The translations under genes and the position numbers were made by a program. The notes below the pieces were generated by a model that was given only the letters and a program-made list of their open reading frames with translations, was not told where the DNA came from and did not search any database. A stretch of DNA of 61,184 nt, filler included, from a bacterium (GTDB lineage Bacteria; UBP15; UBA6099; JAJRTR01), in NCBI GenBank assembly GCA_024278215.1. It is 3 parts of 3 records of this genome, joined end to end, with 100 filler letters (N's around TTAATTAATTAA, not from the genome) between each part and the next. Parts side by side here need not be neighbours in the genome. Positions count along the whole stretch, not along the records: positions 1 to 24,939 come from JAJRTR010000199.1; 2 more parts are not named here. One strand, written 5' to 3'. This document shows, piece by piece, positions 19,834-61,184 of the stretch. The number at the start of each line of letters is the position of its first letter. Within the stretch, counting starts at the first letter, position 1.

Positions 19834-19850
19834 AATTTTGCAATCGGCTC
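19832..19850 (+). repeat. solo terminal inverted repeat of repeat family A
   Basis: AGAATTTTGCAATCGGCTC matches the family A right end; overlaps the TAG stop of the PP2C gene. Confidence 0.65.
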
Positions 19851-22294: not shown

Positions 22295-22496
22295 TGGCGG
22301 AGTAGCGCAATGCGATGTCATACGGGGTATGCACCCGGCCCGACTGGATCACGGCGTTGCGTGTCCCGCGGATTCGCCGCCTCCTGAACAGCGTCGCCTG
22401 CGGCTACCTCTCTTCGACGAAACGTACATGGCCGCCGTCACTTTCTCCCCCTGCCGGCAGTTCGCCGTTCCACGTCTATATAGCATTTATTATTTA

Positions 22497-22675
22497 GAGC
22501 CAGTTGCAAAATTATGTTCGAAGCGAGGTCGAGCGAAATTGGTCGGAAGCAAGGCGGAGGTGCAAAATCCCCGCAGGCGTACTTGTAGAGTACGTCGAGG
22601 ATGATTTTGTGCCGACAACGCAGCTGTTAACAATTGCAGCCGACCGTAGCCGAATCAGAATTTTGCAATTGGCTC
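22497..22675 (+). mobile_element. family A MITE-like element, full copy (179 bp)
   Basis: TIRs GAGCCAGTTGCAAAATT / AATTTTGCAATTGGCTC; TTTA direct repeat on both sides. Confidence 0.9.
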
Positions 22676-22776
22676 TTTAGAATTGCATACGTATAGTTAC
22701 GATTATCATGTACAAAGGAAAGAACACTTTATTGTCGTGTCAACGATGACACGACAGTCGATTATTTGCCATTCGG

Positions 22777-24939: not shown

Positions 24940-25039
24940 NNNNNNNNNNNNNNNNNNNNNNNNNNNNNNNNNNNNNNNNNNNNTTAATTAATTAANNNNN
25001 NNNNNNNNNNNNNNNNNNNNNNNNNNNNNNNNNNNNNNN
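24940..25039. other. assembly gap with artificial spacer
   Basis: N run containing TTAATTAATTAA. Confidence 0.97.
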
Positions 25040-25438
25040 GCGCAGAGTGGCAAGCACGGTTGCGGCATGACCATGAGGCAGACTGCGCACGATCTCGAAA
25101 GCATCCTGCGGCAGAGCGCCGTCGTCGATGGAATGGCCCTTGAGAAGCAGCCGCAGCCCCTCGACAATATGCGGCGGCCAGTTAGTCAGATTTGCGATAG
25201 TGCGTTTGCGCACCTTACCGTCCTCGCGGTAAGACTCGCGAAGCAGAATACAGGGCGGAGAATTGCGATTAGGAACAGATTCGATATACATGAACACCAT
25301 TATAGTATACAAAAGCTGTTATGTCAAGTACTTAAAGCATATTTACATGGGTACAAATATCAACTACAGTTCATGAAATATTCTTTTGTTTGCAGGCATT
25401 TTTGTCATAATCCAGCCATTTTCAGGGGGGAAGTTCAG
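25040..25438 (-). mobile_element. IS1634-family element, left end and transposase N-terminus (CDS starts about 25291, truncated by gap)
   Basis: MYIESVPNRNSPPCILLRESYREDGKVRKRTIANL...SLPHGH; terminus CTGAACTTCCCC on the minus strand from 25438. Confidence 0.85.
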
Positions 25439-30121: not shown

Positions 30122-30160
30122 GAGCCGGTCGCAGCAGAATCAGAATGTTGCAATCGGCTC
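30122..30160 (+). repeat. family A right-end fragment
   Basis: CGCAGCAGAATCAGAATGTTGCAATCGGCTC matches the family A right end. Confidence 0.65.
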
Positions 30161-31979: not shown

Positions 31980-32175
31980 ACAACCCTGCGGCAGAATTAT
32001 ACGTTTTGTCATTTATCCGTACCGGCGGCAGAGGATAAAAAAACTTTTCATCATGATTTTACAATTGGCTCAATACAATAATATTTTTACAAAGTCAAAA
32101 AGGTGCATGTCGCCGGCTCCAGTTCTGCCTGAGCGGTTTTATCACAACGATTCCCCTGGCAGTGATATGCGAGAG

Positions 32176-37749: not shown

Positions 37750-38261
37750 CAGTCATGATTGTCGCCCGTGTGCTTGACCCGCGCTCGAAACTCACGACTG
37801 CTCAGGGTCTCGATACGGAAACCATGTGCAGCTCTCCTAGCGAGTTGTTGGATGTCGGTGAGTGTGATGAAGACGAATGGCACATGCGCCGGGCGCTCGC
37901 GCCCATCCTGTTCGACGACCGCACACCCGACGCCCCGGACGAACGCGCATCAGCAGTCGCGCCTGTGCAACTATCGTCCGCCGCCGCCCGCAAAGCCCGC
38001 ACAAAACGAACAGACGACAGCTATACAGTACAGAGCTTAAGGCAAGTGCTTACAAATCTCGGTACCATCACCATCCGATCTCGTACAAGCGAAAGTGGCC
38101 GGAGCCGAAACATTTTACAAAATAGCCCGTCCCACCAGCCGGCAGCAACGAGCACTGGACCTGCTCGGCATACGACTTCGTGTAATCGGACGTGCACATA
38201 AGAAAATACAAATATCCCGATAAACACTGGCTTTATTGAGTTTTATCATTGGAAAGTTCAG
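37750..38261 (+). pseudogene. internally deleted IS1634-family transposase remnant with right end
   Basis: MIVARVLDPRSKL...DEDE fused to WHMRRALAPILFDD...RKARTKRTDD; terminus GGAAAGTTCAG resembles the end at 25428-25438. Confidence 0.8.
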
Positions 38262-38269
38262 ATAAAGAA

Positions 38270-38297
38270 AAAAGCCGCTCCACTGGAGCGGCTTCCC
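38270..38297 (-). terminator. rho-independent terminator-like hairpin
   Basis: AAGCCGCTCCA-C-TGGAGCGGCTT with an A run on the left. Confidence 0.6.
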
Positions 38298-38494
38298 TCT
38301 AGGGTGTTGCAATCGGCAACACTAACTTCAACTCATTATATACATCGACACAAACCCCAATAAACTTTATACTAATTGAAAAATAAATTCATCTACGTTC
38401 GTAGACAGAATTTTATGGCGGAATATTACAAATCGAGACGCTATTTATGCTATTATTATGTATGGAGTTTTTCAGATAAAGGGGGTATCCCGCA

Positions 38495-38701
38495 ATGAGT
38501 GATGATTTTACAAAATATGATGCGATATTTGTCGAATCTATTGTCGAGGAGATAAACGAGATACTGGTGGAAAAATACAAGGACGAGGAAACCGTGCCGA
38601 TTCTCGGGGTTATAGAAAAAGACAAACTGCCTGAAGATTTTGCTATATGGCTGAAGATTTTTAAAACTGAAGACATCGAAGAAAAACTTGATTTTGACTG
38701 A
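38495..38701 (+). CDS. small acidic hypothetical protein (68 aa)
   Basis: GGGGGT RBS; protein-like composition. Confidence 0.6.
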   Translation: MSDDFTKYDAIFVESIVEEINEILVEKYKDEETVPILGVIEKDKLPEDFAIWLKIFKTEDIEEKLDFD

Positions 38702-40294: not shown

Positions 40295-40424
40295 ATAGTT
40301 GCGTTGTCGGCACAAAATTGTCCTCAACGCACTCCGCGAGTACGTCTGCGATGTTTTCGCGCCTTCGACTTGCTCTGAACAATTTCGCTTGCCATCGCTA
40401 CGAACATAATTTTGCAATTGACTA
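40295..40424 (-). mobile_element. degenerate partial family A element
   Basis: TGCGTTGTCGGCACAAAAT...GTACGTCTGCG...CGCTACGAACATAATTTTGCAATTGACT. Confidence 0.8.
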
Positions 40425-40468
40425 TATTGTTGCTAAAATAATGTGACTCATCGCAAAAAGAGCAATAG

Positions 40469-40643
40469 CCCGGATTTCTCACAAAGAAATCCGGAAAACC
40501 GTGAGAACCCCCATTCTACTGCGTTGCGGCGGCGATTCGGGATCGGTCACATACCGGCAGTATGCTCCCTCACCACTCACTTGCCGCGCCTTGTATTATG
40601 GGCATTCTTCCGGTTTTTCACCCGCATTTGTGAAATATGCGGG
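40469..40643 (+). mobile_element. family B MITE-like element (175 bp)
   Basis: Imperfect TIRs CCCGGATTTCTCACAAA / TTTGTGAAATATGCGGG (14 of 17); ATAG on both flanks; nested internal inverted segments. Confidence 0.75.
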
Positions 40644-40670
40644 ATAGAACATAATAAGGAGCAAGCAAAT

Positions 40671-46629: not shown

Positions 46630-46751
46630 AAACTCCATTCACAAACGAATCAGGAAATATAGAAATACAACTGCGCAGACTGCAAAATCATGTTCGACTG
46701 CTGTTATTCTATACATCTTCGTAAAAAATGGAAGTTATATACCATACAGAT

Positions 46752-46929
46752 GAGCCAACTGCAAAATCATGTTCGTGGCGAAGTCGAGCGAAATTGTTCG
46801 GAACAAGGCGGAGGTATAAAATCCTCGCAGGCGTACTTGCAGAGTATGTCGAGAACAATTTCGCACCGACAACGCAACTATGGACAATAGCAGCCAACCG
46901 CAGCAGAATCATAATTTTGTAATTGGCTC
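46752..46929 (+). mobile_element. family A element, full but diverged copy
   Basis: GAGCCAACTGCAAAATC...AATTTTGTAATTGGCTC; AGAT on both flanks; an extra left-end fragment ACTGCAAAATCATGTTCG at 46679-46696. Confidence 0.88.
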
Positions 46930-50362: not shown

Positions 50363-50436
50363 GCGCCCGTAGCTCAGCTGGATAGAGCGTTAGATTCCGG
50401 ATCTAAAGGCCAGGCGTTCGAATCGCCTCGGGCGTA
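50363..50436 (+). tRNA. tRNA-Arg(CCG), CCA not encoded
   Basis: Acceptor GCGCCCG/CGGGCGT, D arm AGCTCAGCTGGATAGAGC, anticodon arm TTAGA-TTCCGGA-TCTAA, T loop TTCGAAT. Confidence 0.95.
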
Positions 50437-52635: not shown

Positions 52636-52802
52636 GAGGCAATTGCAAAATTCTGACTCTGCTGCGATTGTCCATAGCTGCGTTGTCGGCATAAAATCGT
52701 CCTCGACGTACTCTACAAGTACGTCTGCAATGATTTTACACCTACGCCTTGCACTGAACAATTTCGCTCGACCTCGCTACGAACATAATTTGCAATTGGC
52801 TC
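52636..52802 (-). mobile_element. family A element, inverted, with a short internal deletion (167 bp)
   Basis: GAGGCAATTGCAAAATTCTGA...CATAATTTGCAATTGGCTC; CCATT on both flanks. Confidence 0.88.
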
Positions 52803-53501: not shown

Positions 53502-53520
53502 ATAATTCTGCAATTGGCTC
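53502..53520 (-). repeat. solo family A terminal repeat
   Basis: ATAATTCTGCAATTGGCTC. Confidence 0.55.
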
Positions 53521-54048: not shown

Positions 54049-54226
54049 GAGCCAATTGTAAAATTATGTTCGTAGCGAGGTCGAGCGGAATTGTTCAGAG
54101 CAAGGCGGTGGTGTAAAATCCTCGCAGGCGTACTTGTAAAGTACGTCGAGGACGATTTCGCGCCGACAACGCAGCTATGGACAATAGCAGCCGACCGCAG
54201 CAGAATTAGAATTTTGCAATTGGCTC
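54049..54226 (+). mobile_element. family A element, full copy (178 bp)
   Basis: GAGCCAATTGTAAAATT...AATTTTGCAATTGGCTC; flanks GATAA/AATAA are an imperfect duplication. Confidence 0.88.
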
Positions 54227-54241
54227 AATAAGAGTGGAAGA

Positions 54242-54341
54242 NNNNNNNNNNNNNNNNNNNNNNNNNNNNNNNNNNNNNNNNNNNNTTAATTAATTAANNN
54301 NNNNNNNNNNNNNNNNNNNNNNNNNNNNNNNNNNNNNNNNN
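54242..54341. other. assembly gap with artificial spacer
   Basis: N run containing TTAATTAATTAA. Confidence 0.97.
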
Positions 54342-55073: not shown

Positions 55074-55116
55074 GAGTCAATTGCAGAATCGTATTCTACT
55101 GTACCCGCCTGCAATC
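55074..55116 (-). repeat. highly degenerate family A end
   Basis: GAGTCAATTGCAGAATCGTATTCTACTG resembles GAGCCAATTGCAAAATTCTGATTCTGCTG. Confidence 0.4.
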
Positions 55117-61050: not shown

Positions 61051-61184
61051 GAGCCAATTGCAAAATTATGTTCGTAGCGAGGTCGAGCGAAATTGTTCCG
61101 AAGCAAGGCGGAGATGCGAAATCCCCGCAGGCGTACTTGTAGAGTACGTCGAGGACGATTTTACACCGACAACGCAGCTATGGA
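61051..61184 (+). mobile_element. family A element truncated by the window end
   Basis: GAGCCAATTGCAAAATTATGTTCGTAGCGAGGTCGAGCG...CAACGCAGCTATGGA. Confidence 0.9.

Follow-up and report, generated by a model that had tools for sequence, protein, structure and literature searches.

Family A, a gene-less MITE of a UBP15 bacterium, pairs IS1182-type ends with an ERIC-like folded core that may favour its propagation

The 179-bp repeat at positions 22497–22675 of the DNA studied here is a complete copy of family A, a gene-less MITE of a bacterium in the UBP15 lineage (assembly GCA_024278215.1). The whole stretch that was analysed, 61,184 nucleotides, is called the window. On balance, we think it probable that an ISUnCu17-type transposase of the IS1182 family moves family A in trans. 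Its interior holds an ERIC-like core, which probably folds as a single strand and works in cis, improving the odds that a copy gives rise to new ones. The transposase would bind the ends of family A and insert it at AT-rich sites of the form C-N4-G. One strand would fold into a rod in which the two ends pair with each other, and a broadly conserved protein would bind the internal loops of the core, which are held at a fixed spacing. That partner is more likely a host factor than the transposase, as the core occurs with several types of ends. As the acting form of the core, folded DNA seems somewhat more plausible to us than RNA.

The focal copy and its core both read on the plus strand. It is bounded by 17-bp TIRs, the left (22497–22513, plus) matching the ends of ISUnCu17-type IS1182 elements and the right (22659–22675, minus) identical at 17 of 17 positions to one end of two metagenomic insertion sequences, L361 and L380. 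Family A has GAG termini. TTTA stands on either side (22493–22496 and 22676–22679) as a 4-bp target duplication. The core of family A has a fixed geometry, GCAAGGC..AGGCGTA-loop-TACGTCGAG..AACGCAG. In the focal copy, core motif 1 (GCAAGGC) at 22549–22555 is the 5′ side of a conserved internal loop, the apical hairpin (AGGCGTAC-loop-GTACGTCGAG) is at 22575–22599, and core motif 4 (AACGCAGC) at 22617–22624 is the 3′ side of the loop, all on the plus strand. Folded as RNA, the copy forms a rod of -83.9 kcal/mol (z -8.4), and none of 200 shuffled sequences is equally stable. The DNA fold also stands apart from shuffles (z -7.4), and the opposite strand folds less well (z -5.0). The element, its TIRs, the TTTA duplication and the rod-like hairpin all stand as the preliminary description gave them. 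The insertion splits a separate AT-rich repeat of ~95 bp (22479–22755), and uninterrupted copies of that repeat elsewhere, 93–96% identical, are empty paralogous sites in which TTTA is single. The ~95-bp repeat has about a dozen further matches in the genome.

A profile of family A has 443 matches in the genome, 81 of them at contig edges. The element is 178–179 bp long and has 212 near-full copies, with a median identity to the consensus of 93%. Target duplications are 4 bp long in 113 of 191 copies and 5 bp long in 12, and in a larger set 131 of 209 copies have one or the other length. The target sites are AT-rich, with C five bases before in 81 of the 191 and G five bases after in 95. The search for empty sites proposed in the preliminary description was run on paralogous sites within the genome: the joined flanks of 204 copies gave spanning matches for 15, at least eight of which, including that of the focal copy, are clear, and the clear empty paralogs carry the duplicated bases once. 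Short, non-coding and multicopy, with 17-bp TIRs, target duplications, empty sites and ends shared with insertion sequences, family A is a gene-less MITE. Derivatives of 36–107 bp with internal deletions and both TIRs also occur, several with intact duplications (C6:16952-16997, C187:18449-18501, C136:7327-7362 and others).

The window consists of three contigs (C177, C178 and C203) with N-linkers between them. The linkers have the form N44-TTAATTAATTAA-N44 (24940–25039 and 54242–54341), and the apparent 101-nt repeat that they produce is an artefact. The seven long copies reported earlier for the 61 kb are all present, but they are spread over three contigs and four are complete. Besides the focal copy, the complete ones are 46752–46929 (plus), with the duplication AGAT; 52636–52802 (minus), which is 167 nt long through an internal deletion and has the duplication CCATT; and 54049–54226 (plus), whose duplication is imperfect. 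TTTA, AGAT and CCATT hold as copy-specific duplications. Two copies are truncated by contig ends, 24803–24939 (minus) by that of C177 and 61051–61184 (plus) by that of C203, and the copy at 40295–40424 (minus) is decayed and has no right end. All five solo ends noted earlier are there, namely solo TIRs at 19834–19850 and 53504–53520 (both minus), a right end of 38 nt at 30123–30160 (plus), a partial left end at 46677–46696 (plus) and a decayed solo TIR at 55074–55090 (plus); a sixth, absent from that account, is a solo TIR at 32055–32071 (minus). The sole Rfam match in the window is a tRNA gene at 50363–50436. Positions 25040–25312 and the region near 38000–38500 hold sequence that resembles pieces of an IS1634-type transposase.

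The preliminary description proposed a MITE that a DDE transposase mobilises in trans, saw no cognate one in the window and suggested looking for a transposase flanked by the same TIR. Three such insertion sequences were found in metagenomes and none in this assembly. A TIR scan of metagenomes gave at least 117 loci, and among the matches listed a partner TIR was found for 27 of 119. Ten of these 27 listed elements are short, with 4-bp duplications, and three (L361, L371 and L380) are 1.42–1.50 kb long. All three encode one kind of short DDE transposase, which has IS1182 as its top NCBIfam match, below cut-off, and shares 48% identity with proteins on plasmids that are annotated as ISUnCu17 or IS1182. 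Their ends match the family A TIR at 16–17 of 17 positions; the ends of ISUnCu17 match it at 13 of 17. ISUnCu17 and related short IS1182 elements share with family A both the end sequence and the flanking 4-bp duplication, which in ISUnCu17 is preceded by a C five bases upstream, as in family A. Unlike these elements, family A has no transposase and an unrelated interior, as a type II MITE does, and the insertion sequences tested have no core. Since L361, L371 and L380 share just 17–28 terminal bases with the MITE, its interior is no IS remnant, and that origin is ruled out.

The cognate transposase was not found anywhere in this assembly, a 95% complete MAG whose assembly breaks at repeats, so we infer the mobilisation of family A from its ends. 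Judged by these, an ISUnCu17-type enzyme very probably moves family A, which gives the proposed transposition in trans a named candidate partner within IS1182. By inspection, long pairs of family A TIRs in this genome enclose ordinary genes and no transposases. PF13751 yields two sub-threshold remnants here and no partner transposase, PF05598 has no match in this genome, and the three PF01609 genes were set aside as having ends unrelated to family A. A second IS1182-like transposase, whose ends differ, has left two 3′-end remnants (L011, C188:8625-8795; L012, C62:33079-33195), the first of which is followed after 33 nt by a family A copy. In Methanosarcina acetivorans, MITEs of 160–169 bp, one with 4-bp repeats, have been assigned an IS1182 partner, ISMac2 (PMC3852290). 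Those MITEs are archaeal, and the accessible part of their description includes no conserved folded core.

The core of family A is also found under unrelated ends. A blastn search of the element against 60 other genomes matched two, with four of the five matches confined to the centre, and gave no real match against plasmids and phages. A pattern of three core motifs gave at least 111 loci, which are rods of about 100–190 nt with differing ends. Among the matches listed, they fall in Acidobacteriota, Nitrospirota, deltaproteobacterial groups, Bacillota, Actinomycetota, Planctomycetota and Gammaproteobacteria. The fourth motif, which was not part of the search pattern, is present in 93 of the 111 listed matches, and in 81 of those 93 its spacing is 20–22 nt, with 12–34 allowed. 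A covariance model (R1) of 77 sequences, none of them enterobacterial, was run on 61 genomes, scoring no more than 67 candidates in each, and detected the core in 13. The Rfam scan proposed for family A gave no match to Rfam 15 at gathering threshold, the best E around the element being 2.1. A clostridial variant (L034, L061, L085, L086, L095 and L107) has motif 1 in a local hairpin and is missing the usual 3′ motif.

Within this genome, the same core is carried under different ends by family B, represented in the window by a 181-bp element at 40466–40646 (minus) that is nearer to ERIC than family A is. Family B has 67 near-full copies among 123 matches, at TA-centred targets. Some family A copies are inserted within family B elements (C56:15469, C93:2621). 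Elsewhere, the core-bearing element L028 shares its ends with an IS1182 element of locus L018. In that locus (L018:928-3668), an IS1182 element lies on one side of a core-bearing element and an IS481-like element on the other, each at a CTAG site at the end of the core-bearing element. Other short elements with the family A TIR have different interiors that do not match the core; since there are many such same-end MITEs, the core is not required for movement. Six of them (L305, L394, L413, L337, L329 and L364) have 4-bp duplications and unrelated hairpin interiors, some REP-like. Among viral loci, the model gave 6 matches in 100, then 4 weak ones and 4 in two further sets of 100; the phage cores have mixed orientation to genes and no common neighbour gene. 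Three phage contigs (G064-G066) have two core rods of ~125 nt each (L172, L173, L176, L177, L178 and L710), without IS-like TIRs. These rods have a common AGCG-N-GG / AACCGCT outer loop, and their arms are specific to each copy. Their neighbours include integrase, terminase and head genes, and their orientation is mixed.

The relationship to ERIC is seen with model R1, which has two matches in E. coli K-12, both intergenic, at hsdR-hsdM (E 2e-6) and rplA-rplJ (E 1.7e-4), these E-values being rough. The hsdR-hsdM element is 127 nt long with TATA ends and by eye ~85% like the ERIC consensus in the accessible part of PMC2759123. With an ERIC-only model, built on 14 copies of E. coli, the best matches in the window are family B (E 1.2e-4) and then the 54049 copy of family A (E 0.016); the E-values are again rough, and the focal copy has E 0.86. 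Family A and ERIC (also IRU or RU-1, 127 bp) are alike in forming an imperfect palindromic rod with CAAGGC and AACGCAG motifs and a GA-flanked apex of GCGTAC/GTACGT type. Family A differs in its length of 178–179 bp, in having 17-bp IS1182-type TIRs and variable 4-bp duplications in place of TA ends, and in an extra outer layer of helix. It has the central palindromic core of ERIC by models in both directions, weakly from ERIC to family A, and lacks the ERIC length and the TA termini and duplication; we therefore call it ERIC-like, not ERIC. For ERIC itself, the mobility mechanism is stated as not shown in the accessible parts of PMC2229807 and PMC2759123.

The same apical palindrome occurs in a Geobacter family of 24 elements that was catalogued in 2009 (PMC2700814, accessible part). 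Compared by description, not alignment, it is like the core in its central palindrome of the form G(A/G)CGTAG-loop-CTACGCC and in being intergenic, multicopy and present in other deltaproteobacteria too. The account is BLAST-based and, in that part of the paper, draws no link to ERIC or transposases. A literature search with most subscription papers and ISfinder outside its scope found no paper that groups these elements with ERIC or mentions ISUnCu17. With a core related to ERIC and a known Geobacter family sharing its apical palindrome, the novelty of family A is lower than the preliminary description assumed.

The covariation asked about in that description is found across phyla. In an alignment of 112 core sequences, 93.4% of cells are paired versus 69.0% when shuffled and 25–43% in slid controls, and double changes occur at 17 of 20 core pairs; the sequences are mutually related, the search pattern fixed three of the four motifs, and the alignment (A2) is fitted to the model. 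While the helices turn over, the unpaired asymmetric bases of the core are kept in 112 of 112 sequences. When Watson-Crick pairs alone decide the register, G-T accounts for 84 single mismatches and A-C for 19, and 48 of 89 elements lean to G-T and 5 to A-C. A symmetric double-stranded site would show no such bias, so it is one strand that folds. The other mismatches are mixed: A-G against C-T is equally skewed (60 vs 10) and fits DNA, whereas G-G against C-C (16 vs 27) is not and does not. By the relative stabilities of mismatches, the spectrum leans weakly to DNA.

The copies already inserted behave differently from the branches that gave rise to many of them. The earlier statement that variants keep G-U pairs fails for copies generally, since the rare alleles of inserted family A copies include 46 G-U and 46 A-C, and these equal numbers also rule out an in-family G-U bias as a sign of selection on copies. 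Rates of change are similar for paired, unpaired and TIR bases. On the terminal branches of a tree of 212 copies, changes per site are 5.9 in the core, 7.0 in the TIRs and 7.0 elsewhere; on branches with at least five descendants, they are 0.24, 0.24 and 0.65 (p 0.027). Counted as distinct sites changed, the sparing of the core is 4 of 33 versus 38 of 112 (p 0.016). Branches giving many copies also keep pairing, with a ratio of pairs kept to broken of 29:14 versus 204:408; the narrowest contrast, Watson-Crick to G-U versus Watson-Crick to A-C, is 16:9 versus 142:181 (p 0.06, not significant). The tree, built from copies of 179 bp, carries noise, with sites that flip repeatedly, so that homoplasy or gene conversion inflates the counts on deep branches. 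Inserted copies decay neutrally and many-copy branches spare the core, and therefore selection appears to act on propagation instead of on a host RNA function. The earlier proposal that the interior is under selection as structured RNA or single-stranded DNA is upheld as to selection, by the cross-phylum covariation, the strand-specific mismatch bias and the sparing of the core on deep branches, but not for inserted copies, where none is seen. Replication strand shows no consistent bias across the three genomes that could be called: 12 of 15 elements are on the C-rich strand in G062 (by hand, p ~0.035, with skew missing for one site), 9 of 16 in E. coli, and 179 versus 150 in this genome (p 0.12, on a weak skew). 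In G061, the GC skew is too weak to call.

An unlikely alternative, though the strongest of those we weigh, is that the core works as RNA in host transcripts, in mRNA processing or stability as for Yersinia ERIC, and is selected at the level of the host. Yersinia ERIC is reported, in the accessible part of PMC2229807, to be co-transcribed and to have orientation-dependent RNase E effects, and the G-U excess would suit an RNA. The core strand is indeed the better folding one as RNA in 198 of 212 family A copies and 85 of 89 cross-phylum elements, but it is so as DNA also, in 204 of the 212. No consistent orientation to genes was found. Between co-directional genes of this genome there is a mild sense bias (60 vs 38, p 0.03), but within 60 nt of gene 3′ ends the counts are 40:35, and across phyla the direction is reversed, with 8 sense versus 18 antisense. 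The equally fast loss of paired, unpaired and TIR bases in inserted copies also speaks against host-level selection.

We think it less likely again that the core is itself the mobile or targeting unit, read by some other single-strand enzyme (HUH or integrase-like) and captured by the ends of several IS families. The recurrence of one core beneath unrelated ends would follow from this, as would its fixed spacing (20–22 nt in 81 of 93 listed matches, with 12–34 allowed) and the phage copies, two in each of three phage contigs, with copy-specific outer arms and no IS-like TIRs. However, among 137 scanned ORFs flanking core loci (154 were found), there are two transposases, both at the single locus L018, and no HUH (Y1, RAYT-type) enzyme, and family A copies move whole, with DDE-type duplications. 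Least likely of all, in our estimate, is a core without function. In that case it would go back to one shared ancestral MITE, have spread by horizontal transfer and owe its lasting palindromic form to fold-back template switching. The neutral decay of inserted copies, the patchy distribution (13 of 61 genomes) and the existence of same-end MITEs without the core are as such a history would have them. Template correction, however, gives perfect symmetry. It does not account for the unpaired, asymmetric bases that 112 of 112 sequences retain, for the one-strand G-T excess or for a core that is spared on deep branches.

The way in which ERIC-type repeats move and the reason for their conserved centre have been open questions since about 1990. 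To these, family A brings a named candidate transposase, more than 200 copies for population-genetic tests and evidence of selection on the core at the copying step. As a MITE alone it is ordinary; the interest lies in the core, which is directly testable. More tentatively than for the mechanism proposed for family A, we suggest that ERIC may be one member of a pan-bacterial class of MITEs, whose strand-specific folded core would be a portable mobility enhancer, read by a conserved host protein, working with several IS families and selected only in copies that propagate.
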